Positions 52,016 to 63,369 of a DNA stretch of 64,000 bases are shown here, piece by piece; within the stretch, counting starts at the first letter, position 1, and each line of letters starts with the position of its first letter. The notes beneath the pieces are model-generated. The model was not told the DNA's origin. It did not search any database and saw nothing but the letters and a program-made list of their open reading frames with translations. This stretch comes from a phage. The DNA is taken from assembly GCA_036253495.1 (NCBI GenBank), contig GCA_036253495.1_4125.1. One strand, given 5' to 3'. The position numbers and the translations under genes were made by a program.

Positions 52016-52264
52016 TTTTTTAGTACTGAGTCAATAGCTAAAAACAAAATAATTGAAAATAATTTAACGCGTTTAAACGGCCCGTAAAGCCCTGGATTGT
52101 TGGGAGTGGTGCAAATGTATAGCTTAGGTGTATTAATGCGTTAGAATGCGTCTGAGGCCGTTTTAAGGGTATAGTACTGAATAATTGTACTCACTGGATT
52201 GATTCAGTACTGAATGATAGTACTCCTATATAGAAAGAAAACTATTTTAAAAGTATTTGCAGAA

Positions 52265-52327
52265 AGTACTTGCATACTATGTTTAAGGGCGTATAATGTT
52301 TTACATCGAGACGGGGGAAACGCTCCT
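52265..52327 (+). promoter_or_regulatory. promoter with 5' hairpin
   Basis: AGTACTTGCAT -35, TATAAT, then GACGGGGGAAACGCTCC. Confidence 0.6.
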
Positions 52328-52353
52328 AACTCACTTTAATAGGAATTAAAACG

Positions 52354-52716
52354 ATGGCGACTCAAATCACTAAAATCATTGCTAACCTGGTTAACTTTCG
52401 CGAAGAGATGAAAGATCTTCCGGCTGAGACTGTAAAGATTCATATTTCAGCTTATCGGGAATTGATTGCAATGTTGCCGCTTAAGCGTGAACAATACGCC
52501 GCTACTGTGATGCTTGATGCGATGATCCACAAGATGATTGCCAGTGATTTAACGATGGCTTATCAGTACATGGGCGAACTATTTGCGGTGTATAGTAAAC
52601 CAGTGCCTGGGATGGAAAGTACAGAAGTATTGCACGGCTTAAACTTAAAACAAGATGCATGGGATAATATGCCTCGTTTCCTGGTATGGGCTGACAGTGG
52701 CAAGATTTACGAATAA
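52354..52716 (+). CDS. hypothetical protein
   Basis: 120 aa ORF. Confidence 0.6.
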   Translation: MATQITKIIANLVNFREEMKDLPAETVKIHISAYRELIAMLPLKREQYAATVMLDAMIHKMIASDLTMAYQYMGELFAVYSKPVPGMESTEVLHGLNLKQDAWDNMPRFLVWADSGKIYE

Positions 52717-52726
52717 GTTTTAAAAA

Positions 52727-52788
52727 GTACTTGCAAAGTAAGTTTAAAAGCGTATAATGTTTTACATCAGGTGGGGAATAGTTCCCCA
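52727..52788 (+). promoter_or_regulatory. promoter with 5' palindromic hairpin
   Basis: AGTACTTGCAA, TATAAT, GTGGGGAATAGTTCCCCAC. Confidence 0.65.
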
Positions 52789-52810
52789 CTATATAAGAGG
52801 ATTTTTAATT

Positions 52811-53050
52811 ATGGCTACTACTAAAACTTTCAACGGTCACAAAAACAAAACTCATTGGAATGTAAGCCTTTGGATTAATAACGATGAGTCATTGTATCGT
52901 CTGGCGAAAGAATTTATCGACGCTAATACTAATCGTAATGATGCGGCCCGTCATATGATGCTATTTTTAGAACAAATTGGACAAGATAAAACTCCAGACG
53001 GTTTCAAGTATAGCACTACGGCGATCCGTGCTGCAATGGTTGGAATGTAA
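52811..53050 (+). CDS. hypothetical small protein
   Basis: ATG 52811 after AGAGGA; track ORF from 52757. Confidence 0.6.
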   Translation: MATTKTFNGHKNKTHWNVSLWINNDESLYRLAKEFIDANTNRNDAARHMMLFLEQIGQDKTPDGFKYSTTAIRAAMVGM

Positions 53051-53132
53051 GAGAATAGATTTAAAGTACTATTGCACGGTGATAGTACTTTATAATAGAT
53101 TTCTTTTATACAACAACGATAGGGGTAACAGC

Positions 53133-53399
53133 ATGAATATTATATACTTTGCAACGCGTGAACAAGCTCGGCAAGCGGCAAAGGTTGACGGTGCAACGTT
53201 TAAAGATATGGGCGTACAATCTGAACGTGGTAAACGTTGGGCCGTAGTAAAGCAAAGTACAGCCCGATCAATTCAGTACTGGCTATCGGCTTTAAAGAGT
53301 CCTGATAGTGTATCGCGTCGAGTGGTAGAAATAAAGCACGACCGCAAGGGCAACCGTGTTACTGTGTACAGTACTAAAAAGATTGCAGTACTTGAATAA
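53133..53399 (+). CDS. hypothetical small protein
   Basis: ATG 53133; track ORF from 52977. Confidence 0.55.
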   Translation: MNIIYFATREQARQAAKVDGATFKDMGVQSERGKRWAVVKQSTARSIQYWLSALKSPDSVSRRVVEIKHDRKGNRVTVYSTKKIAVLE

Positions 53400-53401
53400 A
53401 A

Positions 53402-53463
53402 GTACTTGCAAAGTAATTAGATTAACGTATAATACTTTCTATCAGGTGGGGAATAGTTCCCCA
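53402..53463 (+). promoter_or_regulatory. promoter with 5' palindromic hairpin
   Basis: AGTACTTGCAA, TATAAT, GTGGGGAATAGTTCCCCAC. Confidence 0.65.
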
Positions 53464-53486
53464 CTACAAATAAGAGGATTTTTAAA

Positions 53487-53717
53487 ATGGCTATTATGTA
53501 TATGACCGAAGTTAAAACCGTAAAAGATACTACCACTAATAAAACTACTTACTTACAGCGGGTATGCGGTGTATGGCAACGTATTAGTAAAGCAAAGTAC
53601 TTTAAATTAACATCATATGCTAATCGTTCGGATTCATTCAGTACTGAAATAAAAGGTAATAAATTACACCAATACGGCACTTATTATTATTATAGCCTGG
53701 ACGCGATTGCAGTCTAA
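53487..53717 (+). CDS. hypothetical small protein
   Basis: 76 aa, AGAGGA RBS. Confidence 0.55.
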   Translation: MAIMYMTEVKTVKDTTTNKTTYLQRVCGVWQRISKAKYFKLTSYANRSDSFSTEIKGNKLHQYGTYYYYSLDAIAV

Positions 53718-53799
53718 GCAGTTTACAAATCTTTACAATTGCCGGTATTGACTTATTTTGTCAGTACTGGCATAATGTATCTATTGAAACGAACAATTT

Positions 53800-53824
53800 G
53801 GCCCACGGGGTGCGGGAGTGTATC
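53800..53824 (+). repeat. conserved noncoding element family B, copy 2
   Basis: GGCCCACGGGGTGCGGGAGTGTATC. Confidence 0.5.
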
Positions 53825-53855
53825 TATAGAAAAAGTAGTTTAGTACAGTTACAAT

Positions 53856-53905
53856 TGTGCACCCTATGGGTTAGCTGTTGTCATGGGGTATATTATACCA
53901 GTACT
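53856..53905 (+). repeat. conserved noncoding element family A-like, copy 3
   Basis: GTGCACCCTATGGGTTAGCTG..ATTATACCAGTACT. Confidence 0.45.
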
Positions 53906-53964
53906 TGATAATGCTGTCAATACTTTTTTTTTACTATTCAGTACTGAAAACTATTTTTTAAAAA

Positions 53965-54037
53965 GTACTTGCATACTATGTTTAAAGGCGTATAATGTTT
54001 TACATCAGGACGGGGAACGAAATAAGTAACTCCCCGT
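53965..54037 (+). promoter_or_regulatory. promoter with long 5' hairpin / leader element
   Basis: AGTACTTGCAT, TATAAT, then ACGGGGAACGAAATAAGTAACTCCCCGT; leader resembles 57001-57050. Confidence 0.55.
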
Positions 54038-54085
54038 TAAGTAGCCCAGGAGTAAGGCACACGAAAAACTCCCCTGATAAAATAG

Positions 54086-54113
54086 TTTGACAAATGTTTT
54101 TAAAAGCGTATAA
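54086..54113 (+). promoter_or_regulatory. sigma70-like promoter
   Basis: TTGACA, 16 bp spacer, TATAAT. Confidence 0.55.
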
Positions 54114-54146
54114 TACTTACATCAACTACTGAATGAGAGTTACAAA

Positions 54147-54821
54147 ATGAAAACTATCACTACTACTACTTTCGTTATGGATTTTTCTGAATTGAATGAG
54201 GGTGGCAAAGCGAAAACTATCACTACTACTACTTATGTTATGGCTTTTTCTGAATTGACCGCAGAACAACAAACGTCAGCTATCGAACTGGTTCGGGATC
54301 GTGAGCGTTCATGCGGGGATGATTTCTTTTCTGAGTCAGTGATCGAATACTATAAAGAAACATTATTGCCGGAATATGGCATTAATGACGCAGATTTACG
54401 ATTCAGTGGTTTTTGGTCGCAGGGTGACGGTGCATCAATCAGTACTGATCACGTTGACGGTGTGAAGTTTTTACGCAAGATTAAAGCATTAACTAAGTAT
54501 CGTTCTATCCGTCACCTGCTGAATGAAGATGATTTGGCAATGAGTGTAAAGCGTTCTCACTCCCACTACTCGCATGAAAACACTGTAAGCGGGTACATTG
54601 AATCGGCTTACACTGATTTAACCGCAAAACAAGAAACGTTAGTTAATGAGCTTGAGGAACTACTCACTGAAACTATTCGTGAATTATCTCGCAAGTTGTA
54701 CCGTGATTTAGAGAATGCATATGAGGATCAATTCACTACTGAGAACATTGTAGCACTGATTGAGGGTAACGAATATCAATTCAATGTTATTGATGGCGTA
54801 GTAGAATCAATCGAATATTAA
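54147..54821 (+). CDS. hypothetical protein with N-terminal internal duplication
   Basis: 224 aa; KTITTTTFVMDFSEL repeated as KTITTTTYVMAFSEL. Confidence 0.6.
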   Translation: MKTITTTTFVMDFSELNEGGKAKTITTTTYVMAFSELTAEQQTSAIELVRDRERSCGDDFFSESVIEYYKETLLPEYGINDADLRFSGFWSQGDGASISTDHVDGVKFLRKIKALTKYRSIRHLLNEDDLAMSVKRSHSHYSHENTVSGYIESAYTDLTAKQETLVNELEELLTETIRELSRKLYRDLENAYEDQFTTENIVALIEGNEYQFNVIDGVVESIEY

Positions 54822-54838
54822 TTCAGTACTGAATCAAT

Positions 54839-54857
54839 GGCGGGAGTGGTTCCCGCC
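54839..54857 (+). promoter_or_regulatory. 5' palindromic hairpin (no obvious own promoter)
   Basis: GGCGGGAGTGGTTCCCGCC just upstream of the RBS of 54878. Confidence 0.5.
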
Positions 54858-54877
54858 TATAACCAGGAGTAAGCATC

Positions 54878-55111
54878 ATGATCGAACAAATTCAAACGAC
54901 TACTAGCCGGAGCGGAACGAAAGTACATTCCATCGCTGATACTGATAAAGGTGTACCCTATTGTGCTGTACACGTAAACACTGACGGTGACTATTGGTTA
55001 ACTGTATACGGGCGTTACTCGTTTGCTTTTAGTGCACATAGTAAGATCCTGGAAGTAGTGAAGCCAACGGGTAAAAATATTACCGCTGAAATGTTTTATA
55101 AAAAGCACTAA
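54878..55111 (+). CDS. hypothetical small protein; paralog of 56247..56483
   Basis: Shared GVPYCAVHVNTDG.YW.TVYG ... PTGKNITAEMFYKK. Confidence 0.65.
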   Translation: MIEQIQTTTSRSGTKVHSIADTDKGVPYCAVHVNTDGDYWLTVYGRYSFAFSAHSKILEVVKPTGKNITAEMFYKKH

Positions 55112-55114
55112 AAA

Positions 55115-55176
55115 GTACTTGCAAAGTAATTAGATTAACGTATAATACTTTATATCGAGAGCGGGAATAGTTCCCG
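55115..55176 (+). promoter_or_regulatory. promoter with 5' palindromic hairpin
   Basis: AGTACTTGCAA, TATAAT, GCGGGAATAGTTCCCGC. Confidence 0.65.
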
Positions 55177-55196
55177 CCTATACTGAGGATTATCTA

Positions 55197-55478
55197 ATGA
55201 GCAAAGTAATTAACTATACAGTACTAAGCAAGTCATTGTCTATCAGTGAGTGCACCGATGGTTATTGGCTTTATGATGAAACGCGTGGCATGAATTTAGC
55301 TATGCAGGAGAAAACTACTGATGCGGCATATCTTAAAGCACTGGAATACTACCAGAAGCGTTTAAAGGAAGTAGAAAACGATTATAATAACCTGAAAGCG
55401 AAAGTAGATAATTTCGTTGGTCAATTCGTTGACGATGACGAGGGGCACTACTGCGACCGTTGCGGATCTTACAGTTAA
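55197..55478 (+). CDS. hypothetical small protein
   Basis: 93 aa; C-terminal CDRCGSYS. Confidence 0.6.
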   Translation: MSKVINYTVLSKSLSISECTDGYWLYDETRGMNLAMQEKTTDAAYLKALEYYQKRLKEVENDYNNLKAKVDNFVGQFVDDDEGHYCDRCGSYS

Positions 55479-55495
55479 GTACTAAGGATTATATA

Positions 55496-55699
55496 ATGAG
55501 TGATTTAATTGAACGTATCAAAGAGCTTGAAGAAAAAGAATTGCAGCTAATCGGCTTACAGAATAAAATCTATCATGATTTGGGGAGTTTTATCAATGCC
55601 TGGGATAGTGGCGATCCTGATGCGTTACCTGCTAACCGCCAGGCGATGATCAATGATGTGCGTCGTGTCTTTGAGTATGTTTTTAAGCAATTAAATTAA
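55496..55699 (+). CDS. hypothetical small protein
   Basis: ATG 55496 after TAAGGA; track ORF from 55460. Confidence 0.55.
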   Translation: MSDLIERIKELEEKELQLIGLQNKIYHDLGSFINAWDSGDPDALPANRQAMINDVRRVFEYVFKQLN

Positions 55700-55702
55700 A
55701 AA

Positions 55703-55765
55703 GTACTTGCAATTAGTTTTCAGTACTGTATAATAGTTTACATCAAGGGGAGAAATGGTTCTCCC
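55703..55765 (+). promoter_or_regulatory. promoter with 5' palindromic hairpin
   Basis: AGTACTTGCAA, CAGTACTGTATAAT, GGGGAGAAATGGTTCTCCC. Confidence 0.65.
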
Positions 55766-55784
55766 TGGTAATGAGGAAAATACA

Positions 55785-56006
55785 ATGGCTAACATTACTA
55801 CCCTTTCCCAACTTGAAGCACTGGTTAAATCTATGCGGGAACATGCCGACAATATCGGCGTAAAAGATCCAGCCGTTTGCTTCTGCGACGATGTAAATGA
55901 TGATACACTGGTAATAGCAGAAGTCCAGGACGTTTCTAACTATTCATCGCGTTACACTGGCGGTGTAGCAAATAAAGGTGACTTCTGTTTATACCTTACT
56001 AAGTAA
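55785..56006 (+). CDS. hypothetical small protein
   Basis: ATG 55785 after GAGGAA; track ORF from 55755. Confidence 0.55.
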   Translation: MANITTLSQLEALVKSMREHADNIGVKDPAVCFCDDVNDDTLVIAEVQDVSNYSSRYTGGVANKGDFCLYLTK

Positions 56007-56066
56007 TACAGAGGGGATCGATTGATCCCCTTTATTTTGCAGTACTGAATCATTTAATAGACGGAT

Positions 56067-56127
56067 CTATGCACCCGGTGGGTTAGAGACTGTATCGTCT
56101 TGATGTAGTAATTATGCCAGTACTGGA
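56067..56127 (+). repeat. conserved noncoding element family A, copy 4
   Basis: CTATGCACCCGGTGGGTTAGAG..TCTTGATGTAGTAATTATGCCAGTACTGG. Confidence 0.6.
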
Positions 56128-56169
56128 TGCAGTTGTCAAGAACTATTTTTCAAATACTTTTTATTAAAA

Positions 56170-56225
56170 TACTTGCTAATAGTTTTTAAACGCGTATAAT
56201 GTTTTGCATAGGGGAGCGGTTCCCC
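56170..56225 (+). promoter_or_regulatory. promoter with 5' palindromic hairpin
   Basis: TACTTGCTA, TATAAT, GGGGAGCGGTTCCCC. Confidence 0.6.
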
Positions 56226-56246
56226 TGGTAACTAAGGAATAAGAAA

Positions 56247-56483
56247 ATGCTTGAACAAATCAAAACAACGTCTGCGAATGTAACGGGAACGGTATCACAC
56301 TTTATTGGTGATGAATCGCGGGGCGTACCCTATTGTGCTGTACATGTAAACACTGATGGCAACTACTGGTTTACGGTTTACGGATCTTATTCATTTGGTC
56401 GACCTGGACATCAAAAAATCCTGGATAAAGTACAGCCAACGGGTAAAAATATCACTGCTGAAATGTTTTATAAAAAATCATAA
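56247..56483 (+). CDS. hypothetical small protein; paralog of 54878..55111
   Basis: 78 aa; same conserved core. Confidence 0.65.
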   Translation: MLEQIKTTSANVTGTVSHFIGDESRGVPYCAVHVNTDGNYWFTVYGSYSFGRPGHQKILDKVQPTGKNITAEMFYKKS

Positions 56484-56484
56484 A

Positions 56485-56546
56485 GTACTTGCAATTAGTT
56501 TTTAGTACTGTATAATATTTTACATAGCAAGGGGGAACGGTTCCCC
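56485..56546 (+). promoter_or_regulatory. promoter with 5' palindromic hairpin
   Basis: AGTACTTGCAA, TAGTACTGTATAAT, GGGGGAACGGTTCCCC. Confidence 0.65.
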
Positions 56547-56566
56547 TGGTAACTAAGGATAATCAA

Positions 56567-56866
56567 ATGAAAATTGCAATCATCGCCCTGGCTTTATCTG
56601 TTTCCTCTTTCGCTGTTAATGCGTCATTAGATGTACCTGGTGATAAATTCATTCAGTGCACAGTAGCAATGACAGATGAAAGTACTGGCGAGATTGTTTT
56701 AAAGGATCTGGAATTACAGCCAGAAGCATTTAAAAACGGGCCGTTCCATGAAGAAGACGAAAAAGGTAGCACAACAATTTATTATGATGCAATGAAAAAA
56801 CGTGGTTCTGTCACTGTTATGGATACTGAGAAAGTAACGCATACAGGCGTTATTAACTGCCTATAA
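56567..56866 (+). CDS. putative secreted small protein
   Basis: Signal peptide MKIAIIALALSVSSFAVNAS. Confidence 0.6.
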   Translation: MKIAIIALALSVSSFAVNASLDVPGDKFIQCTVAMTDESTGEIVLKDLELQPEAFKNGPFHEEDEKGSTTIYYDAMKKRGSVTVMDTEKVTHTGVINCL

Positions 56867-56886
56867 TACATCAGTACTGAATCACT

Positions 56887-56913
56887 AGCCCACTATAAGC
56901 AGTGGGCTTTTTT
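56887..56913 (+). terminator. Rho-independent terminator
   Basis: AGCCCACTATAAGCAGTGGGCT + T-run. Confidence 0.75.
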
Positions 56914-56961
56914 GTAGTATCGTAGTACTGGAATACTTTGAAAATAGTTTTAAAAAAGTAG

Positions 56962-57050
56962 TTGACATTACCGCAAAAAGGCGTAGAATGTATTACATCA
57001 AGACGGGGAACACTAAGTAGACCGCCAGTAAGTCGAACGAAAAACTGGAC
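56962..57050 (+). promoter_or_regulatory. promoter plus conserved long leader element
   Basis: TTGACA, TAGAAT; leader ACGGGGAAC..AAGTAG..AGTAAG..CGAAAAACT resembles 54010-54075; about 110 nt 5' UTR. Confidence 0.5.
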
Positions 57051-57112
57051 ACGTCGAGAAAACTTTGATACACTAACTAACGTAAACTAAACTTTAATTG
57101 AGGAATTACATA

Positions 57113-57595: not shown

Positions 57596-57616
57596 CAATT
57601 AAAGTACTGAATCACT

Positions 57617-57826: not shown

Positions 57827-57871
57827 TAATTACATCAAGGCGAGACACCTTAACTAACTGAGGATATAAAG

Positions 57872-58024
57872 ATGAATACTTATGAACTGGATTGTTTCAC
57901 TTTACAAGTAATGTCAGTATGCAGTAAAAAAGATTGGTCATCAAAGGAATTTAAAGCAGTTATCGCGTGTGCAAAACACGGCAAGACTATCAATGAAACG
58001 GCATCAATCATTGATAAACTTTAA
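57872..58024 (+). CDS. hypothetical small protein
   Basis: 50 aa hand-translated; GAGGAT RBS. Confidence 0.4.
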   Translation: MNTYELDCFTLQVMSVCSKKDWSSKEFKAVIACAKHGKTINETASIIDKL

Positions 58025-58032
58025 AAAATAGT

Positions 58033-58061
58033 TTGACAATAGTTTTAAGTACTGCGATAAT
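58033..58061 (+). promoter_or_regulatory. sigma70-like promoter
   Basis: TTGACA, 17 bp spacer, GATAAT. Confidence 0.5.
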
Positions 58062-58094
58062 ACATACATCAACTACTGAATAGGAATCAAAACA

Positions 58095-58322
58095 ATGGCT
58101 ATCGTAATCACTCGCGTAACTGGTACTACTGGCAATTCTTCTACTGTTGCTGTAATTACTAATAAGAAAGGTGCGGAATTGCATTTTGCAATGGATACCT
58201 GGGCAGTGAATGAGTTCGGTCAGTGGGCTAGTGTAGAATACATTGAATCCTATCAAGTGCCATCGATTAGCTTAACTGATTTAGGTGTAGAACGTATCCT
58301 TTGCCTGGATGAATTAAATTAA
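58095..58322 (+). CDS. hypothetical small protein
   Basis: 75 aa ORF. Confidence 0.55.
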   Translation: MAIVITRVTGTTGNSSTVAVITNKKGAELHFAMDTWAVNEFGQWASVEYIESYQVPSISLTDLGVERILCLDELN

Positions 58323-58326
58323 AAAA

Positions 58327-58390
58327 GTACTTGCAAAGTAAATCAAATAAAGTATAATACATTACATCAAGGGGAGAAATGGTTCTCCCC
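58327..58390 (+). promoter_or_regulatory. promoter with 5' palindromic hairpin
   Basis: AGTACTTGCAA, TATAAT, GGGGAGAAATGGTTCTCCCC. Confidence 0.65.
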
Positions 58391-58408
58391 ACTAAGAGGA
58401 AACGAAAA

Positions 58409-58552
58409 ATGAAAACTTGTCAATGTGGTAAAAAATCTATTACTGGTTTAAAGCGGGGCGTTGCTCTTTGTCAGTATCACTATAATGCTCAAGTATGGGG
58501 TAAAGAGTGGGCCGACCGGGTTGAAGCATCAAAGAAAGCAAAAAGTAAGTAA
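58409..58552 (+). CDS. small cysteine-containing protein (possible zinc ribbon)
   Basis: 47 aa hand-translated; CQCG ... LCQYH. Confidence 0.45.
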   Translation: MKTCQCGKKSITGLKRGVALCQYHYNAQVWGKEWADRVEASKKAKSK

Positions 58553-58571
58553 AAATATTATCACAGTACTA

Positions 58572-58600
58572 TTGACATAGATTGATAGTACTGGCATAAT
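58572..58600 (+). promoter_or_regulatory. sigma70-like promoter within a ~95-bp duplicated intergenic block
   Basis: TTGACA, 17 bp spacer, CATAAT; block recurs at 58860-58950 and 62740-62830. Confidence 0.6.
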
Positions 58601-58643
58601 AGATTTTATCAAGACAACACATATTAATTTAAGGAATACTAAA

Positions 58644-58856
58644 ATGGCTATCATTATTAAAAACAAAGTTAACAAGACTATCGTTAAACTGGCAGAAGTG
58701 AAAGAAGGTTATAAAGTATCTTGGGAGGGTTTTTATAGGATGTTCACAGATATAGACGATGCAATCAAGTACTACACTGATACGGTTGCTGACTTTGTTC
58801 GTTCTGATGTAGTAATGGCAGTTGCACAACATAAAGCATCGAAAGAAAGTAAGTAA
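58644..58856 (+). CDS. hypothetical small protein
   Basis: 70 aa; MAII start shared with 62828 gene. Confidence 0.55.
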   Translation: MAIIIKNKVNKTIVKLAEVKEGYKVSWEGFYRMFTDIDDAIKYYTDTVADFVRSDVVMAVAQHKASKESK

Positions 58857-58875
58857 AATTATTATCACAGTACTA

Positions 58876-58904
58876 TTGACATAGTTTGATAGTACTGGCA
58901 TAAT
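58876..58904 (+). promoter_or_regulatory. sigma70-like promoter (duplicated block copy 2)
   Basis: TTGACA, CATAAT; leader identical to copy 1. Confidence 0.6.
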
Positions 58905-58947
58905 AGATTTTATCAAGACAACACATATTAATTTAAGGAATACTAAA

Positions 58948-59271
58948 ATGGCTAAAACTATCATTAACACCGTATCCCTGGCTGCAATCCGTGCAATCAA
59001 TGTTGACGGTAAACGTTGGACTGATTCATATGGCAATACTTATCATTCTTGTCATGTAAGCGTTGAACTGGATAACGGTGTGAATGATCTGGCGGTTGAA
59101 TCATTTACTTATGGCTATGAAGATGCATATCAACAAACGGCGTTATCTCTCTTAAAGGAATCAGTAGATGGGCTTGATACTGTTGAAACCTCCCTTAATC
59201 GTTTGTGCAATGATTTGTCTATCCCGTTGCATTGTACTGTACAGAATGTTAAACGCAAAAAAGATCTTTAA
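58948..59271 (+). CDS. hypothetical protein
   Basis: 107 aa ORF. Confidence 0.55.
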   Translation: MAKTIINTVSLAAIRAINVDGKRWTDSYGNTYHSCHVSVELDNGVNDLAVESFTYGYEDAYQQTALSLLKESVDGLDTVETSLNRLCNDLSIPLHCTVQNVKRKKDL

Positions 59272-59351
59272 TTAGCTTTACTTTATGCAGATACTTTGAT
59301 ATAGTGTCTGCATAGGGGAAAGAAATTAAATTAACTTAAGAGGATAGTATA

Positions 59352-59621
59352 ATGAAAAATATCAGTACTTTAATCGATGCAGGTACGCATGTTCGTCGGT
59401 CTATGGTTGCAACCAGTACTACAAAACAAGTAGCGAGCGGTTATCTTGTATTTGTGCACGATGGTAAACTCCTGGAACGTTCAATCAATTTTGATGTTAA
59501 AAACAATTGCCGTTTTATTATCTTTAAGCGTGAACAATATAAAATTGATTTACCAGCGAAGCCCATAAGCGGGGCGTACAACGTGCAATCATTGTTTGAG
59601 CGTCAACCATACACCTATTAA
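59352..59621 (+). CDS. hypothetical small protein
   Basis: 89 aa, AGAGGA RBS. Confidence 0.55.
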   Translation: MKNISTLIDAGTHVRRSMVATSTTKQVASGYLVFVHDGKLLERSINFDVKNNCRFIIFKREQYKIDLPAKPISGAYNVQSLFERQPYTY

Positions 59622-59672
59622 TCAAAACATCGTTAGCGGTTGATTTAGGCCGCTTATATTGAGGATTATACC

Positions 59673-59942
59673 ATGAACGTTAATCAAGTACTGAATGAAG
59701 TTGAAAGCATCATTAAACCAATGAAACGAATTGATGCAATTCCTACACCGGAAGAATGCCGCCTTTATGAGCGTTACAGTGTAGAACAAGCCCAGGCGAT
59801 GGCCCGTATCCGTCCGGTTGCTAGTACTGAGAACGCGGATCAGGACGTTACAGGGGATTATATCATTAATCCAGTACTAGGGAAGATGCCGCCAATCACC
59901 GAAGAACAAAAAGACTATTTGAGCCAGTACTTAAAAGGTTAA
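59673..59942 (+). CDS. hypothetical small protein
   Basis: 89 aa, GAGGAT RBS. Confidence 0.55.
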   Translation: MNVNQVLNEVESIIKPMKRIDAIPTPEECRLYERYSVEQAQAMARIRPVASTENADQDVTGDYIINPVLGKMPPITEEQKDYLSQYLKG

Positions 59943-59947
59943 TTAAT

Positions 59948-60157
59948 ATGCTTACTGTACAGGATAAGATCGACATCTTAAAGGTTAATATGTATGTGAT
60001 TGATGCAGATCCTGAAAAAGTATTTGCATACGATGATTCTAATCGTAGTCCTTTCTATTGTAGTCATGTAGTTGGATACGTGCCGTTGGCGTATGTTATC
60101 GAAAGAGTGGTTGATGCAGCATACAATCATTTTTTAGAAAATAATACTTGCAATTAG
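59948..60157 (+). CDS. hypothetical small protein
   Basis: 69 aa ORF. Confidence 0.45.
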   Translation: MLTVQDKIDILKVNMYVIDADPEKVFAYDDSNRSPFYCSHVVGYVPLAYVIERVVDAAYNHFLENNTCN

Positions 60158-60206
60158 TTTTCAGTACTGTATAATGATTTGCATCGAGAGCGGGAATGGT
60201 TCCCGC
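60144..60206 (+). promoter_or_regulatory. promoter with 5' palindromic hairpin
   Basis: TACTTGCAA, CAGTACTGTATAAT, GCGGGAATGGTTCCCGC. Confidence 0.65.
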
Positions 60207-60229
60207 CTAACTCAAAGAGAGAAAATATA

Positions 60230-60472
60230 ATGGAAACTATTTTAATCAAAGACACTGCAACTACTGTTACTTATGATAATGATTGTATTATCCCTGGCAC
60301 TGATTACGGTGAACGTGTACCCGTTCAAGTCGAGATTGATACTACATACATTGACCAGGCTGAAAAGTGTATCACTATTGTTATTGGTGAATATCGTTTT
60401 CTACCAGAAGAGATCCAAAAATGGCAGTATATGATTGACCGTGCGAAATTAGTCGCACAAAGTTTAAAATAA
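60230..60472 (+). CDS. hypothetical small protein
   Basis: ATG 60230; track ORF from 60179. Confidence 0.55.
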   Translation: METILIKDTATTVTYDNDCIIPGTDYGERVPVQVEIDTTYIDQAEKCITIVIGEYRFLPEEIQKWQYMIDRAKLVAQSLK

Positions 60473-60535
60473 TACTTGCAATTAGTTTTCAGTACTGTAT
60501 AATGTTTTACATGAAGGGGAGAAATAGTACTCCCC
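60472..60535 (+). promoter_or_regulatory. promoter with 5' palindromic hairpin
   Basis: TACTTGCAA, CAGTACTGTATAAT, GGGGAGAAATAGTACTCCCC. Confidence 0.65.
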
Positions 60536-60554
60536 ACTAATTAAGGAATATGAA

Positions 60555-60701
60555 ATGAAAGCATCAAAAAAGAGTAATACTAAGAAAGCATGTTCACCTT
60601 TCGCTGGGGTATTCCCTTTACGTTTCGTTGATGAAGTGGTTTCCTACCCGCCGGGCCTTACTCCTGAGATGGTAGAAAGTTTGCGTAAATCTAAAAAATA
60701 G
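60555..60701 (+). CDS. hypothetical small basic protein
   Basis: 48 aa hand-translated; AAGGAA RBS. Confidence 0.45.
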   Translation: MKASKKSNTKKACSPFAGVFPLRFVDEVVSYPPGLTPEMVESLRKSKK

Positions 60702-60764
60702 TACTTGCAATTAGTTTTCAGTACTGTATAATGTTTTACATAGAGGGGGGAAATGGTTCTCCCC
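60701..60764 (+). promoter_or_regulatory. promoter with 5' palindromic hairpin
   Basis: AGTACTTGCAA, CAGTACTGTATAAT, GGGGGGAAATGGTTCTCCCC. Confidence 0.65.
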
Positions 60765-60782
60765 GATACTAGGAGAATCAAA

Positions 60783-60935
60783 ATGAAACAATATAATGCT
60801 CGGTTTGATGTTACTATCGGCAACGGCAAAGGTCAATTTTCTTTCAGTACTCGTCGCAGTTATACAGAAAACTTCCTGCGTAATTGTGCATTGACCGCCG
60901 CACAAATTAAACATTACTTCCAGGCTAAAAAATGA
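60783..60935 (+). CDS. hypothetical small protein
   Basis: ATG 60783 after AGGAGA; track ORF from 60753. Confidence 0.5.
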   Translation: MKQYNARFDVTIGNGKGQFSFSTRRSYTENFLRNCALTAAQIKHYFQAKK

Positions 60936-61021
60936 AATCATTGGCTTATTACAGTTCGGCGGTGATCGGTGCATTGATCGCGGCATTGTTAGTAACCTAT
61001 CTATTCTTTGTGGTGATTTAA
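60932..61021 (+). CDS. small hydrophobic peptide
   Basis: 29 aa hand-translated, single TM-like segment, ATGA overlap. Confidence 0.3.
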   Translation: MKSLAYYSSAVIGALIAALLVTYLFFVVI

Positions 61022-61159
61022 ATGAATCCTAACGGTTTAATTTATAGTACTCCTAAAACGAAAGCAGATAAAGCGAAAGCACGTAAAGCGAAAGTAAAGG
61101 AGTACATCAAGCAAGGCATGACGCGAAAAGCAGCAGTACTAAAAGCTAAAAATAAATGA
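61022..61159 (+). CDS. small K/A-rich basic peptide
   Basis: 45 aa hand-translated, TAAATG coupling. Confidence 0.4.
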   Translation: MNPNGLIYSTPKTKADKAKARKAKVKEYIKQGMTRKAAVLKAKNK

Positions 61160-61166
61160 AAAAAGT

Positions 61167-61198
61167 GGTTGACTTCGGTCAGCCATTTTGCTATTATA
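61167..61198 (+). terminator. terminator hairpin overlapping promoter -35
   Basis: GGTTGAC-TTCG-GTCAGCC, short T-run, TATTAT. Confidence 0.6.
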
Positions 61199-61221
61199 TA
61201 TTCATTGAGAGATAGCTCACT

Positions 61222-61246
61222 AGCCCACCGGGTGCGGAAGTGTAAA
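61222..61246 (+). repeat. conserved noncoding element family B, copy 3
   Basis: AGCCCACCGGGTGCGGAAGTGTAAA. Confidence 0.45.
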
Positions 61247-61278
61247 TAAAATATATCAATCTAATAAGGAGTACTACA

Positions 61279-61461
61279 ATGTTTAAACCAATCGAACTAG
61301 CGGCATCACATATCATCGGTAAACCTGCCGTTATCATACGCCAGGAAGACGTAAACCTATGGATCATCTATGTAGACATGAAAGAGATTGAGCGTCACGA
61401 TGATTTCAAATCAGCGTCAATTGCGTATGATATGGCGTTATGTGAGTATCAAAGAGATTAA
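61279..61461 (+). CDS. hypothetical small protein
   Basis: 60 aa, AAGGAG RBS. Confidence 0.55.
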   Translation: MFKPIELAASHIIGKPAVIIRQEDVNLWIIYVDMKEIERHDDFKSASIAYDMALCEYQRD

Positions 61462-61477
61462 AAGTATTTTGCAAAAA

Positions 61478-61540
61478 GTACTTGCATTGTACTTAGAATC
61501 AAGTATAATGTTTTACATAGCAAGGGGAAACGGTTTCCCC
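61478..61540 (+). promoter_or_regulatory. promoter with 5' palindromic hairpin
   Basis: AGTACTTGCAT, TATAAT, GGGGAAACGGTTTCCCC. Confidence 0.65.
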
Positions 61541-61561
61541 TGGTAACTAAGGAAATGAATT

Positions 61562-62029
61562 ATGAATAGCATCGAATTCGTCGCAGCAGTACAAGAAAAC
61601 TTCCTGAAAGTATTCCCTAACGGTTTCTTTATCGCCCGACCTTTACCGCTGGGTGGCGACGTGGGGATCACTATGTCACTGACTCGCGAGCTTGCCGACT
61701 GCCCCCACAATATCCGCGATAACGACCGCATGATGATGACCTTTGCGATCCACGGTATGAAGTTCGGGGATAGCGACGAATACACAGACAAGCTGATCAT
61801 GGAACCGTACCGCAGCGTTATCAGTACTATTCCACGTAAACAGTACTACGCGATGGGACATGACAAAATCCCTACCCGTAAGACTACAAACACGCCTGAG
61901 AAGCTGTTAGCGACTCTTAACAAGTATATTCGGGCCGCAGGTAAACAGGTGTTAGATCTTAAAGCATTAAACGAGATTTACCAACAGGAAAACATCAAAG
62001 AGCAGTACTTAGAAATTAACGTAAAATAG
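61562..62029 (+). CDS. hypothetical protein
   Basis: 155 aa ORF. Confidence 0.6.
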   Translation: MNSIEFVAAVQENFLKVFPNGFFIARPLPLGGDVGITMSLTRELADCPHNIRDNDRMMMTFAIHGMKFGDSDEYTDKLIMEPYRSVISTIPRKQYYAMGHDKIPTRKTTNTPEKLLATLNKYIRAAGKQVLDLKALNEIYQQENIKEQYLEINVK

Positions 62030-62093
62030 TACTAGACAACACAACGGGGCTATTATATAATAGTCCCATCTTAAGCAAACAAGGAACTACAAA

Positions 62094-62432
62094 ATGATCT
62101 CAATCGCTCAATCTAACTTTGAAAACGAAATCATCGCCCAGGCACTGCGTTTAAATGATGGTCGGGCCGAAATTAATTACGGTTTCAATTCAGGCGGTTG
62201 TGAAAACTATCAGTACTTTGTAACGGCTGATGGCGGTGTCCTGGGAATCAATACAGTTATTGTAAACATTCAGAAAATTAATTTCAATGATCCAGAAGAT
62301 AGCCAGTTTTACATCACGGGCGTAGACGTGAACTATGAGGATGACTCACTAACTGATGATTGCACTGGTGAGAAGTTAGAAAGTGCATACGGTGAAGATG
62401 ATTATCAGTCCGGTCCAGAAGATTTCGAATAA
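62094..62432 (+). CDS. hypothetical acidic protein
   Basis: 112 aa ORF. Confidence 0.6.
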   Translation: MISIAQSNFENEIIAQALRLNDGRAEINYGFNSGGCENYQYFVTADGGVLGINTVIVNIQKINFNDPEDSQFYITGVDVNYEDDSLTDDCTGEKLESAYGEDDYQSGPEDFE

Positions 62433-62448
62433 TATAAAAAATAGTTTG

Positions 62449-62511
62449 ACAATAGATTATAGTACTGTATAATAAGTTACATCAAGGGGAGAATAGTTCT
62501 CCCCACAAACA
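62449..62511 (+). promoter_or_regulatory. promoter with 5' palindromic hairpin
   Basis: TTGACA, TAGTACTGTATAAT, GGGGAGAATAGTTCTCCCC. Confidence 0.65.
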
Positions 62512-62524
62512 GAGAGAAAACAAA

Positions 62525-62737
62525 ATGGCTAATATCCGCACTGTACTGAAAAATGCAAAACAAGTTTTATTTTCTGATCATGAAAATTTCAACAAGGATA
62601 TCACAGGCGTTCGGAATATCAAAGATGTAAAAAATGTTATGGGTATCTATTGCAATATGAAACGTGTTGGCACGTTCGGCGATAAAGTACTATACCAGGC
62701 AGGGGATTACAATTTTACACTGACTATCATTAACTAA
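62525..62737 (+). CDS. hypothetical small protein
   Basis: 70 aa ORF. Confidence 0.55.
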   Translation: MANIRTVLKNAKQVLFSDHENFNKDITGVRNIKDVKNVMGIYCNMKRVGTFGDKVLYQAGDYNFTLTIIN

Positions 62738-62756
62738 AAATATTATCACAGTACTA

Positions 62757-62785
62757 TTGACAACGTTTGATAGTACTGACATAAT
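62757..62785 (+). promoter_or_regulatory. sigma70-like promoter (duplicated block copy 3)
   Basis: TTGACA, 17 bp spacer, CATAAT. Confidence 0.6.
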
Positions 62786-62827
62786 AACTTTTATCAAGAC
62801 AACGCATATTAACTTAAGGAATTAAAA

Positions 62828-63007
62828 ATGGCTATTATCGCAAAAACTGAAATCGTTGGTCTGGATTCTATCATCATGACGTTTGAAGATCAAAAAGGGA
62901 TGTATGTAGTTTCCTATGGTGATTATGTTCGGGAGTATGAAACGGTAGACGAAGCCTTTGAAAGTTACATTCGCCAGGTGAATAAAGCATACGACGACTA
63001 CCGCTAA
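62828..63007 (+). CDS. hypothetical small protein
   Basis: 59 aa hand-translated; MAIIAKTEIV. Confidence 0.5.
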   Translation: MAIIAKTEIVGLDSIIMTFEDQKGMYVVSYGDYVREYETVDEAFESYIRQVNKAYDDYR

Positions 63008-63034
63008 AATATATTACCAGTACTATTAAAGATA

Positions 63035-63062
63035 TTGACATAGTTTGATAGTACTGTATAAT
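63035..63062 (+). promoter_or_regulatory. sigma70-like promoter
   Basis: TTGACA, 16 bp spacer, extended -10 TGTATAAT. Confidence 0.6.
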
Positions 63063-63106
63063 AAGTTTTATCAACAGTAGTTAACTTAACCTAAGAGAGA
63101 AAGAAA

Positions 63107-63250
63107 ATGATCGCACTGGATTCATTCATCGAAGCAGTACTGGCAAAAACTGGCGAAGATCTGACCGCAGAACAATACGCAATGATCGAACAATGCCAGC
63201 AAGACGGTAAATCGGTGAAAGATACTGTTAAGATTATCCGCAAGATGTAA
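63107..63250 (+). CDS. hypothetical small protein
   Basis: 47 aa hand-translated; AGAGAGAAAG RBS. Confidence 0.5.
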   Translation: MIALDSFIEAVLAKTGEDLTAEQYAMIEQCQQDGKSVKDTVKIIRKM

Positions 63251-63256
63251 GATTAT

Positions 63257-63287
63257 AGCCCACTGGTTAACGCTGGTGGGCTTTTTA
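63257..63287 (+). terminator. Rho-independent terminator
   Basis: AGCCCACTGGTTAACGCTGGTGGGCT + T-run. Confidence 0.7.
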
Positions 63288-63369
63288 GTATATACCTATC
63301 CGATAGTACTACAAAATAGATTAGCTCGTTAGAATGCGTTTGAGAGCGTTTAAATAAGTACTAAAAAGT

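Follow-up and report, generated by a model that had tools for sequence, protein, structure and literature searches.

Location and Setting of the Motif Copies

The window, a 64,000-nt stretch of phage DNA, derives from a jumbo coliphage of the 121Q/PBECO4-like kind, an Asteriusvirus, and its right-hand part is occupied by the left part of the direct terminal repeat (Table 1). The start of OQ718158, in which a repeat of 21,525 bp is annotated, aligns to window position ~50606, and the terminal repeat of fEgEco12 was experimentally confirmed to be 20,993 bp long (PMC13070987). An exact 12-mer, CGTTAGAATGCG, was found three times in the window, at 52139, 57743 and 63327, always on the + strand and as the beginning of the pattern CGTTAGAATGCG-N8-CGTTT(T/A)A (52139–52166, 57743–57770 and 63327–63354). 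Copies 2 and 3 both carry the 3' half TTGAGAGCGTTTAAA without change, and copy 1 has TCTGAGGCCGTTTTAA at this place. When a covariance model of 36 motif family members was run on the 64-kb window, exactly three strong matches were obtained. They scored 40–43 bits, with E between about 1e-9 and 1e-8, and the next-best match reached 12.6 bits (E about 0.75). This confirms that the repeated element noticed in the preliminary description is real.

Counted from its left end, the ~21-kb terminal repeat has the three copies at 1.5, 7.1 and 12.7 kb. Copy 1 falls within the 1.75 kb of non-coding DNA with which the repeat starts on the left and would be ~1.5 kb off the physical terminus, if the terminus is where the alignment places it. 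Copies 2 and 3 follow strong terminators, the first of which (stem 57617–57638) coincides with a terminator also annotated in the G17 record, and precede promoters, that of copy 2 beginning 29 nt past the motif and belonging to a repeated promoter cassette family; both copies are therefore expected to be poorly transcribed. The position between a terminator and the next promoter, claimed for every copy, thus holds for copies 2 and 3 but not for copy 1, which has only a weak terminator-like site (51915–51934) ~200 nt upstream and a promoter (52270–52297) ~105 nt downstream. Neither DnaA boxes nor an iteron cluster or AT-rich unwinding region adjoins the window copies, and the suggestion of a secondary origin finds no support in the window.

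Table 1. Features of the terminal repeat within the window.
Feature	Position	Strand	Remarks
Direct terminal repeat, left part	50606..64000	+	Continues past window end; contains every motif copy
Motif copy 1, core 52139–52166 CGTTAGAATGCGTCTGAGGCCGTTTTAA	52133..52174	+	Exact 12-mer; covariance model 40.1 bits
Intrinsic terminator (AGCCCACC..GGTGGGCT, then T run)	57617..57645	+	Ends upstream transcription unit
Chi octamer, GCTGGTGG on the − strand	57664..57671	−	The "CCACCAGC" of the preliminary description
Partial inverted copy of motif 5' half	57675..57699	−	Left arm of short inverted repeat
Chi octamer GCTGGTGG	57726..57733	+	9 nt 5' of copy 2; invariant in six relatives
Motif copy 2, core 57743–57770 CGTTAGAATGCGATTGAGAGCGTTTAAA	57737..57778	+	Covariance model 43.1 bits
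Sigma-70-type promoter of next early gene	57799..57826	+	TTGCAC/16-nt spacer/TATAAT; read directly
Intrinsic terminator 5' of copy 3	63257..63290	+	Stem 63257–63282
Chi octamer in terminator stem 3' arm	63272..63279	+	5' of copy 3
Motif copy 3, core 63327–63354 CGTTAGAATGCGTTTGAGAGCGTTTAAA	63321..63362	+	Covariance model 40.1 bits
Consensus sigma-70 promoter	63371..63398	+	TTGACA/16-nt spacer/TATAAT; 17 nt past copy 3

Inverted Repeat and Chi Sites near Copy 2

The inverted repeat of ~110 bp reported around copy 2 was reduced to a partial, imperfect inverted copy of ~25 nt, and neither its length nor its outer arms could be retained. The reverse complement of 57675–57699, TAATGCGTTAGAAT-CGATTCTAGG, is the motif with one base deleted, a deletion that generates the palindrome TAGAATCGATTCTA. 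This arm scored just 9.6 bits with the covariance model and carries a 12-nt deletion in G17, and it appears from these sequences to be dispensable in relatives. The octamers CCACCAGC (57664–57671) and GCTGGTGG (57726–57733), taken as outer ends, were rejected, being arranged in the order A, B, A', B' and not in the nested order A, B, B', A'; they are two Chi sites, of which the left one is mutated in 121Q and G17. With arms so short, imperfect, un-nested with the octamers and partly deleted in G17, a cruciform-capable palindrome of that size is not supported. When 57650–57780 was folded as single-stranded DNA, the arm did pair with copy 2 (−16.8 kcal/mol, z = −2.4), and an equally good fold was reached by 1 of 200 shuffles, whereas folding as RNA was unremarkable (z = −0.6). 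Seven Chi sites were counted in the 64-kb window, against 0.5 expected. Chi, the RecBCD octamer, is a recognition sequence of a host machine, as the motif would be, and is over-represented in the terminal repeat of this phage, but it is an 8-mer abundant in the host chromosome, whereas the motif is ~30 bp long and absent from the core chromosome at this similarity.

Distribution of the Motif

Three motif places per terminal repeat were found in the Asteriusvirus records listed (six where both repeats are deposited), with the exceptions of A4 (one place) and BF17 (four places), and none was found elsewhere in the ~350-kb genomes listed. Copy 1 is also present in vB_Ec-M-J (at 1488) and 121Q, and copy 2 is almost invariant in six Asteriusviruses, CMSTMSU alone deviating, by 2 bases. 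The core of copy 3 is kept between the window and vB_Ec-M-J, while the 40-nt upstream flank and the downstream sequence differ. It had been asked whether the element is repeated beyond chance and conserved; as it is repeated far beyond chance and kept in relatives, the preliminary description stands on this point.

The motif, of ~30–35 bp in all, has the core YYAGAAYGCG-WTNNAGR-GCGTTTTAR, usually preceded by an A-tract. Matches were obtained in 592 phage records, including the T5-like phages Spc35, KPP2018 and T5 itself, where the motif stands at the border of the injection-stop region; copy 3 and the Spc35 copy share 25 consecutive identical bases (25/25 of the core). A further 1,747 plasmid records matched, chiefly IncX plasmids, in which tandem pairs ~190 bp apart adjoin the origin. 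Of 5,426 E. coli genomes, 1,671 gave matches; in the records listed these fell without exception in accessory DNA lacking annotation, and the core E. coli chromosome yielded no copy of high similarity. Other matches were located in prophages or satellite-sized contigs, 3' of replication genes with DnaT or Rep_O domains, and at least 11 of 20 species-genome matches were to Gammaproteobacteria. The three window sites are thus copies of a conserved cis-acting motif common to unrelated mobile elements from enterobacteria and related bacteria. Its presence in T5-like phages, IncX plasmids and prophages alongside a jumbo coliphage was unexpected, and this sharing could not be seen in the preliminary description. 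A literature search by the motif sequence string found nothing.

The orientation of the motif relative to flanking genes varies among the other elements. Short forms missing exactly 10 nt were found in T5 (inverted repeats IRB and IRB') and as the second copy in one other family member (L087), and in one prophage family the 3' half, ACAGAGCGTTTTA, stands alone 150 nt upstream. No partner feature was consistently found near the motif: its association with DnaA boxes is limited to T5-like phages and IncX plasmids, promoters downstream of it (6/26) are not enriched and terminators upstream (7/33) are only mildly so. In tblastn searches of a few loci, no protein was common to the T5-type first-step-transfer genes and the window, nor to these genes and the vB_Ec-M-J repeat, the IncX locus or two prophage loci.

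Sequence Conservation and the Hairpin

The motif alignment contains 12 invariant and 5 nearly invariant columns, with four "loop" positions among them. Three covariation tests of the hairpin AGAAYGC/GCGUUUU were negative or unstable. Pair counts equalled the shuffled expectation, the largest flank-swap energy test (37 non-redundant sequences) gave p = 0.29, and two further flank-swap tests were borderline (p = 0.024 and 0.028). The conserved feature of the motif is its sequence and not a covarying structure. The structured RNA suggested earlier has weak support as the function of the motif: a complementary core of 7 bp is present, but covariation was not seen, Rfam gave no match (E up to 1), and the sites lie 3' of terminators.

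A possible but rather unlikely explanation is that the motif folds into a strand-specific hairpin, either in read-through or early transcripts or in single-stranded DNA, and is recognised as such by a host RNA- or single-strand-binding factor, with roles in processing, stability, priming or anti-termination. The hairpin would have the stem AGAAYGC/GCGUUUU, an 8-nt loop (G-W-U-N-N-A-G-R) and a variable outer stem. Nearly all family members gave this fold (40-mers, −8 to −23 kcal/mol), and the only variation in the inner stem preserves pairing (U.G to C-G in 28/72 sequences, G.U to A-U in one). Folding favours the + strand over the − strand by about 4.6 kcal/mol (−11.6 versus −7.0 kcal/mol), and the conserved asymmetry of the dyad yields G.U pairs on the + strand only, as a strand-specific hairpin predicts. 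Some lineages have long perfect outer stems of differing sequence (CCCCGU/ACGGGG, CCUCUU/AGGGGG, GCGUU/AACGC), in 10 of 15 sampled contexts the motif has the same direction as the downstream gene, and the two flank-swap tests at p about 0.025 point the same way. Against this, no pair showed compensatory change beyond the shuffled expectation, RNAalifold retained just 5 pairs (−0.6 kcal/mol), and the conserved short forms and the isolated 3' half abolish the hairpin altogether. Window copies 2 and 3, besides lying 3' of strong terminators, have stems interrupted by an A.A mismatch and give weak folds (−5.8 and −8.8 kcal/mol), and some motif copies elsewhere are antisense to both flanking genes.

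A Candidate Docking Site for a Host Factor

The occurrence of the motif in a jumbo phage, T5-like phages, IncX plasmids and prophages suggests that it is probably a host-factor recognition site, and the explanation that we tentatively prefer, at somewhat below an even chance, is that of a docking site which a conserved host factor recognises by its sequence in duplex DNA. The motif would be read as duplex DNA, rather than as RNA, by a conserved host protein; a host reader is preferred to an element-encoded one because tblastn showed no common protein at the few loci searched. The putative site consists of two GCG(W)T-containing decamers one helical turn apart, forming an imperfect dyad. The short forms, lacking 10 nt or one helical turn, and the isolated 3' half suggest recognition by units, which fits DNA binding. 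By analogy with T5, the terminal repeat in which the jumbo phage places the motif three times would be the first DNA to enter the cell, and the order terminator, motif, promoter at copies 2 and 3 suggests a mark at the boundary between early transcription units. Binding may anchor, insulate or otherwise organise newly entered or replicating DNA. Several observations count against this explanation: the failure to find a highly similar copy in the core chromosome would be unusual for the site of a host regulator, the better folding of the + strand and the borderline flank-swap values do not favour duplex docking, and a consistent partner feature is lacking. Many consensus sites of E. coli regulators known to us were compared, and to our knowledge none fits the motif core.

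A further explanation is that the motif is the operator of a small DNA-binding protein encoded by each element, from a gene family too short or divergent to be detected. Dyad and phased-repeat architecture is typical for small-repressor operators and excisionase-type arrays, and the regions are packed with unannotated small ORFs. Nevertheless, this explanation is very improbable: the T5-type genes had nothing in common with the other loci by tblastn, and an identical 25-nt core in siphoviruses, jumbo myoviruses, plasmids and satellite-sized contigs would need one regulator in all of them.

Comparison with Phage T5 and Other Signals

The same sequence as the window motif is found in T5 (AY587007) at 9270–9299, GCGTTAGAATGCGATCTAGGACGTTTTAGG, in the palC–palD interval of Repeat Region 3, in the injection-stop-signal region (Davison, bioRxiv 10.1101/866236). 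In the T5 record, this full-length copy is unannotated, and IRB and IRB' ("inverted repeat B/B'"), which equal the window motif minus 10 nt, carry no assigned function. In both phages, the motif is non-coding, follows a terminator and lies in a long direct terminal repeat, but in T5 it has a LexA-box-like palindrome and paired DnaA boxes beside it, neither of which the window has, and the window phage is an unrelated jumbo myovirus with no first-step-transfer proteins in common with T5 (tblastn). It was considered that the motif could belong to the cis-acting apparatus for staged DNA entry, as one component of the injection-stop signal in T5, and that the Asteriusvirus would pause or anchor the entering end of its genome at three sites. 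The full motif of T5-like phages stands at the left border of Repeat Region 3, held to contain that signal, ~60 nt from IRD' and its DnaA boxes, with the short form IRB' in mirror-image position adjoining IRC-spacer-IRD. In both T5-like phages and Asteriusviruses, it lies within the long terminal repeat and reads inward from the left end, on the strand of the rightward early genes, and the literature as of 2026 gives no mechanism for the T5 stop signal. However, the motif also occurs in prophages, in satellite-sized contigs and beside plasmid origins, without any injection, and the T5 copy is placed some 350 bp inside the shear point calculated in the Davison preprint (10.1101/866236). The Asteriusvirus copies are far from the inner boundary of the repeat, and two-step entry is not known for jumbo phages of this type. 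This explanation is considered improbable.

The motif was also compared with ops (operon polarity suppressor) elements, which RfaH recognises, and with the ops-like site that PrfaH of IncX plasmids uses, with a CGG/CCG stem and a GGTCAT loop (PMC11880322). As these, the motif is a short, sequence-conserved and strand-specific signal of mobile elements; as with ops, it would depend on a factor conserved in Enterobacterales, and a small hairpin of the non-template strand is possible. The motif sequence is, however, unlike GGCGGTAGCGTG and unlike the PrfaH site, and ops has to lie 3' of a promoter, in a 5' UTR, whereas window copies 2 and 3 follow a terminator and precede a promoter. Single-strand initiation signals (G4-type and phiX-type primosome assembly sites) are likewise hairpin-capable and found by plasmid origins and 3' of phage replication genes, but the motif is one short stem and not a multi-hairpin structure, shows no resemblance to the phage G4 origin of complementary-strand synthesis, and in virulent phages lies in early regions, far from replication origins. 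The phased GCG triplets of the motif resemble what we take to be the consensus pause signal (G at −10, TGCG at the pause).

The recombination site of the preliminary description is a possible function, the flanks of copy 3 varying in relatives while the motif is kept. In a rival explanation, the motif would be a recombination linker, a short sequence shared at module boundaries that is spread and maintained by promoting cassette exchange between co-infecting elements and having no other function, which we regard as hardly likely. The flanks of copy 3 differ on both sides between close relatives around a persisting core, one contig (L053) joins an Asteriusvirus-like upstream flank to a T5-like downstream flank, homology with many relatives ends within 70 nt 3' of copy 2, and two inverted motif copies flank a serine recombinase gene in one prophage family. 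Nevertheless, 25–30 bp is short for efficient homologous exchange, the breakpoints 3' of copy 2 fall in the promoter and outside the motif, and the abundant promoter cassettes are more obvious substrates. Conservation is also position-specific, with invariant and free positions, whereas simple homology would be expected to give uniform conservation. The promoter-early stem-loop cassettes of T4-type phages and the boundary sequences of lambdoid phages are modular-exchange linkers and resemble the motif as short conserved non-coding sequences at cassette boundaries with variable genes on either side. They are, however, confined to one phage lineage, whereas the motif is found across plasmids and different phage families; nor is the motif a promoter, as the T4-type cassettes are. 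The window has its own promoter cassettes of the T4-type linker kind, separate from the motif.

Copies of the Motif in the Terminal Repeat

The occurrence of the element along the window was evaluated with a covariance model of 36 family members, and three sites were found with scores of 40–43 bits (E ~1e-8), whereas the next best site in the 64 kb reached 12.6 bits, confirming the preliminary description of a repeated element. The same sites are marked by the 12-mer CGTTAGAATGCG, which occurs exactly three times, on the + strand, at the first base of each copy. The 28-mer is identical in copies 2 and 3 except for one base, and copy 1 diverges in its 3′ half; the copies are 5,604 and 5,584 nt apart. 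A location between a terminator and the next promoter, earlier proposed for every copy, was confirmed for copies 2 and 3, each of which has a strong intrinsic terminator upstream and a promoter downstream, while copy 1 falls within the left end of the repeat, a non-coding stretch of 1.75 kb. The coordinates of these and other features are collected in the table.

Coordinates of the motif copies and of the features discussed in the text
Feature	Record	Position	Remark
Motif copy 1	Window	52139-52166	+ strand
Motif copy 2	Window	57743-57770	+ strand
Motif copy 3	Window	63327-63354	+ strand
Inverted left arm	Window	57675-57699	
Exact Chi sites	Window	11220, 20930, 33215, 57664 (-), 57726, 63272, 63539	6 of 7 in one orientation
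Left end of terminal repeat	Window	50606-52353	no convincing ORF
Consensus promoter	Window	50991-51018	perfect match
26-bp tandem repeat	Window	51151-51217	2.6 copies
Array of 8-bp units	Window	51460-51554	GGCTGGAT/ACGGCTAA
Equivalent of first vB_Ec-M-J gene	Window	52354-52716	
Palindromic octamer CAGTACTG	Window	50586, 51005, 55721, 60162, 63375	examples
Promoter cassettes	Window	55694-55790, 60135-60207, 63630-63726	examples
67-nt repeat	Window	51742-51808, 51958-52024, 56062-56128	begins CGTAACTATGCACCCGGTGGGCTAGAG
Two tandem 63-bp units	Window	54130-54255	87% identical
224-aa ORF	Window	54147-54821	
Motif copies	vB_Ec-M-J (OQ718158)	1488, 7481, 11794	
Opposed Chi sites	vB_Ec-M-J	~589-608	small hairpin
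Motif	Spc35	8725	
Motif	T5 (AY587007)	9270-9299	GCGTTAGAATGCGATCTAGGACGTTTTAGG
IRB (inverted repeat B)	T5	5285-5310	CGTCAGAAAGCGTTTTAGG
IRB′ (inverted repeat B′)	T5	6184-6209	CGTTAGAAAGCGTTTTAGG
Palindrome D	T5	9330-9349	TACTGTATAAATATACAGTA
Primosome-assembly-like stretch	IncX plasmid pCOL256-3	4600-4680	GCTCGGTCGTTCGGCTGCGGCGAGCGG
Inverted motif copies	Prophage L005	2134-2175 (-), 5000-5041 (+)	
Tandem motif pairs	Contigs L159, L162, L167, L170, L176, L187, L189, L191, L195, L196, L218, L230, L231		

A search with the 700 nt around copy 2 retrieved 37 phage records, all of 121Q/PBECO4-group jumbo coliphages or Salmonella phages, with phage A4 as the top match (97% identity); Asteriusvirus is the genus to which the retrieved records of the 121Q/PBECO4 group are classified. 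A direct terminal repeat of 21,525 bp is annotated in the relative vB_Ec-M-J, whose first bases align at about position 50606 of the window, and for another relative, fEgEco12, PhageTerm and restriction mapping have established a repeat of 20,993 bp (PMC13070987). Homology to these two repeats places the whole region 52131–63350 in the left part of the terminal repeat and, as judged from it, the three copies lie in non-coding DNA of a long direct terminal repeat. Small + strand genes are densely packed in this left region, each with a sigma-70-type promoter and a 5′ stem-loop.

Conservation of the element in relatives was also borne out, with the same three copies in vB_Ec-M-J and a near-invariant element across six Asteriusviruses. 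When the 32-mer was used in BLAST, three places were found per listed Asteriusvirus record holding one terminal repeat and six where both repeats had been deposited, the exceptions being A4 (one place) and BF17 (four places). The spacing of about 5.6 kb is not a constant of the group, the values in vB_Ec-M-J being 5,993 and 4,313 nt. For many relatives, the homology stops at about 57836, within the promoter, which suggests cassette-mediated gene shuffling. At copy 3, vB_Ec-M-J departs from the window over the 40 nt upstream and in all of the downstream sequence but has the same core, which argues for selection on the element itself; a role as a pure recombination linker is considered improbable.

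Inverted Repeat and Chi Octamers

The inverted repeat of about 110 bp that had been proposed around copy 2 was not recovered in that form. Two nested complementary arms of about 50 nt were not found between the element and its upstream flank; the arms are about 25 nt long, the left one being an inverted, incomplete copy of the element's 5′ half that lacks one base, and the octamers CCACCAGC (57664) and GCTGGTGG (57726) are interleaved with these short arms rather than lying outside them. Aligning this intergenic region across six Asteriusviruses showed little or no variation in the element, the promoter and the right Chi site. The left octamer was mutated in two phages, and the inverted left arm had lost 12 nt in G17 and was substituted at some positions in vB_Ec-M-J and CMSTMSU, so that conservation of both arms was not observed among the six. 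A long cruciform was rejected on account of arms that are short, not nested and, in one case, partly deleted in G17. When the region was folded as single-stranded DNA, the inverted arm paired with the element (−16.8 kcal/mol, z = −2.4); its fold as RNA does not stand out (z = −0.6).

Both octamers are Chi sites, and the exact Chi sequence occurs seven times in the window against 0.51 expected, an over-representation of about 14-fold that concerns the flanking octamers and not the motif. The site at 63272 is built into a terminator stem. This enrichment may serve as protection of linear ends against RecBCD. Additionally, a small hairpin formed by two opposed Chi sites was observed near the genome end of vB_Ec-M-J.

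Structure of the Motif

Among non-redundant copies, the shared core (YYAGAAYGCG-WTNNAGR-GCGTTTTAR) spans about 26 nt and usually follows AAAAC, with no conservation past about 35 nt. The core can be read as an imperfect dyad in which AGAAYGC pairs with GCGTTTT, both asymmetries becoming G.U pairs on the + strand, and nearly every copy is predicted to fold as the same hairpin with an 8-nt loop; it can alternatively be described as two decamers one helical turn apart, with GCG(W)T in each. The mean folding energy of the family is −11.6 kcal/mol on the + strand versus −7.0 kcal/mol on the − strand, and the window copies, located after terminators, fold only to −5.8 to −8.8 kcal/mol. Recognition of the motif as a strand-specific RNA or single-stranded DNA hairpin would be in keeping with this dyad and strand bias. 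The outer stems looked convincing by eye, yet they passed neither of two pair-count tests nor the flank-swap test with the largest set. Compensatory base-pair changes above the shuffled control were not found: paired cells amounted to 75.0% versus 75.0% in the shuffled control with a fixed alignment and to 75.9% versus 75.5% with a model-fitted alignment, and RNAalifold retained only five invariant pairs. A register-free swap of 3′ flanks between lineages gave p = 0.11, 0.024 and 0.028, and then 0.29 with the largest set. For this reason the hairpin is not claimed as demonstrated, although a predicted one is possible, and its recognition as a strand-specific structure is judged rather unlikely.

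Conservation lies in the sequence and extends to four 'loop' positions. Recognition as duplex DNA is favoured by several observations: the conserved short forms are shorter by exactly one 10-nt unit, one prophage family has a 3′ half-unit standing alone, copies 2 and 3 of the window follow strong terminators, and the motif is found in both orientations relative to neighbouring genes. A protein that recognises the duplex sequence is tentatively preferred to the hairpin on the weight of the evidence, at somewhat less than even confidence.

The motif was also compared with known RNAs and sites. No tRNA was found, and Rfam 15 gave no match at E up to 1 for window 49000–64000; a partial resemblance of the core to the 5′ half of what we take to be tRNA-Lys was judged not to fit. 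To our knowledge, the core fits none of the consensus sites of the E. coli regulators IHF, Fis, Lrp, RcsB, PhoP, the OmpR family or the LacI family, and it is also unlike the H-NS high-affinity site, boxA, the MuA site, attC, Tn3 ends and CRISPR I-F/I-E repeats as we know them. The G4-type priming signal was rejected, the complementary-strand origin of G4 (3860–4030) having no resemblance to the motif, and so was an ops/PrfaH site, which differs in both sequence and position (ops-like IncX PrfaH site from PMC11880322). The AT-rich seed motif of Sfx/H-NS showed no similarity to the motif either (PMC13250579); for H-NS and Sfx, ChIP data from strains with R6K or IncX plasmids are available in that study. 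A Hin/Gin-type crossover site was discarded because the sequence TTATCAAAAAC, found just upstream in one prophage family, is absent at the second, inverted copy.

T5-like Phages

BLAST with the 32-mer matched 592 phage records, most of them apparently T5-like phages of Salmonella, Escherichia and Klebsiella according to names and sizes (105–145 kb), with the taxonomy confirmed only for Spc35, KPP2018 and T5. The elements of these three phages scored 46–53 bits with one covariance model, and in Spc35 and KPP2018 all 25 core bases were identical to those of the window motif (copy 3 in the case of Spc35). The window motif therefore matches in sequence the element of T5-like left terminal repeats. 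The Spc35 element lies inside the annotated left terminal repeat, which according to the record comprises the first-step-transfer DNA, and is located after the last pre-early gene and about 60 nt before paired DnaA boxes. In T5, the element is flanked by palindromes C and D and borders Repeat Region 3 on the left, and the T5 inverted repeats IRB and IRB′ are the same element minus exactly 10 nt. Davison compared 25 T5-like phages and regarded Repeat Region 3 as the probable injection-stop signal, these untranslated repeats being better conserved than most genes (10.1101/866236).

TTWTNCACA boxes were found near the motif in Spc35, T5 and the IncX plasmid. None was found within 700 nt of any copy in the window or vB_Ec-M-J, so that the IRD′-spacer-IRC′ module, with its paired DnaA boxes, was not detected there. 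DnaA boxes near the motif are restricted to T5-like phages and IncX plasmids, and the motif was rejected as a constant companion of DnaA boxes or origins. T5 palindrome D fits what we take to be the LexA-box consensus, CTGT-N8-ACAG, and two other phage lineages (L027/L087 and L066) have similar TATACAG-containing sequences immediately after the motif.

Plasmids, Prophages and Other Genomes

Of 5,426 complete E. coli genomes, 1,671 had the motif, with 1,514 places on chromosomes and 666 on plasmids, and no listed record carried an annotation at these sites. The contexts sampled were an ETEC prophage, an IncX plasmid and, as a weaker match that is possibly due to chance (E ~0.8), a lambdoid prophage; phages P4 and lambda, scanned for an annotated site, were both without the motif. 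Matches were also obtained in 1,747 plasmid records. Pattern scans of viral, genome and metagenome collections added satellite-sized contigs, further prophages and another jumbo-phage contig, and a scan of one genome per species gave 20 hits, against about 9 expected by chance on our own estimate, among them Escherichia, Leclercia, Phytobacter, Pantoea, Erwinia, Arsenophonus, Vibrio, Moritella and Haemophilus.

The IncX plasmid carries two tandem copies about 190 bp apart, beside DnaA boxes and the iteron origin but not within it. In the window, a replication origin or iteron cluster was not found, the copies being single, 5.6 kb apart and without DnaA boxes. Neighbours that could be named were often replication genes (DnaT-domain protein, replication protein O and HTH_36 proteins), and some were structural or packaging genes. 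A role as upstream activator of promoters was rejected, as 6 of 26 contexts had a downstream promoter, a frequency equal to that of control windows; a co-directional upstream terminator was mildly enriched (7 of 33 versus 1–3 in control windows).

The region of the IncX plasmid between the DnaA boxes and the motif pair closely resembles what we take to be the primosome-assembly hairpin region of pBR322/ColE1. Metagenome contigs commonly carry tandem motif pairs like that of the IncX plasmid, at a near-fixed spacing of 177–190 bp, and this constant spacing may itself be functional. In one prophage family (L005, L051, L088 and L147), two inverted motif copies flank a 2–2.9-kb segment with a serine recombinase gene, a layout reminiscent of an invertible segment.

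Recognition and Possible Role

A tblastn comparison of the window, the IncX locus, two prophage loci and the vB_Ec-M-J repeat with T5-type first-step-transfer genes showed no protein in common, and a shared gene cassette was accordingly rejected for these loci. The presence of the motif in unrelated elements, the absence of a shared protein among the loci compared and the largely gammaproteobacterial distribution suggest that it is read by something common to the hosts; a regulator encoded by the elements themselves is very doubtful.

In the terminal repeat, which is assumed, by analogy with T5, to be the DNA that enters first, copies 2 and 3 stand at boundaries between early transcription units. 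The T5 motif flanks a module associated with the DNA-transfer pause, and the motif of plasmids and temperate phages adjoins replication functions. Binding of a duplex-recognising host protein may anchor, insulate or otherwise organise newly entered or replicating DNA, a proposal that we infer from its fit to all these settings. The most attractive version, a direct role in staged genome entry, is unlikely. In its fullest form, the motif would be a docking site for a conserved gammaproteobacterial host factor and part of the T5 injection-stop/restart machinery, through which mobile elements control the fate of newly entered DNA; this is held to be highly improbable, but if true, the three Asteriusvirus copies would imply that these jumbo phages too deliver or activate the genome end in stages.

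As far as the tools and libraries used indicate, the motif family is new as such: Rfam gave no match, a literature search on the sequence string brought up nothing but two papers on human genetics, both unrelated, and only the short T5 forms are annotated, without a function. Its kind, that of conserved cis-acting repeats of phage terminal repeats, is already known. The sharing of a near-identical non-coding sequence of 25–30 nt by T5-like siphoviruses, jumbo myoviruses, IncX resistance plasmids and prophages is surprising and experimentally tractable, and it suggests that mobile DNA and the enterobacterial cell interact in one way not yet described. Since the T5 motif edges the presumed injection-stop region, whose mechanism has been open since the 1960s, a small conserved motif that is also present in simpler plasmid systems could offer a tractable handle on that signal. 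The motif is additionally a compact marker for terminal-repeat and early regions in new Asteriusvirus sequences and a possible cis-element in IncX plasmid biology. Even if it were neutral, the annotation of T5 would be corrected, IRB and IRB′ being short forms of a wider motif.

Other Repeats in the Window

The non-coding left end of the terminal repeat contains a perfect consensus promoter, a 26-bp tandem repeat and an array of 8-bp units, which could correspond to non-coding RNAs or to packaging or terminus-recognition repeats. The palindromic octamer CAGTACTG was counted 58 times in the window against 1.0 expected; it is dense in this left end and often located in the spacer of early promoters (TTGCAATTAGTTTTCAGTACTGTATAAT), and it resembles the target site of a regulator, encoded by phage or host, or a signal connected with restriction or methylation. 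Between 52256 and 64000, 13–15 copies of a 60–100-nt cassette were observed, each combining a promoter, a G-rich 5′ stem-loop and a ribosome-binding site and resembling the promoter-early stem-loop cassettes of T4-type phages. A separate 67-nt repeat is present in three copies with 63–82% identity. Finally, two tandem 63-bp units span the start of the 224-aa ORF, the first of them beginning 17 nt upstream of its ATG.
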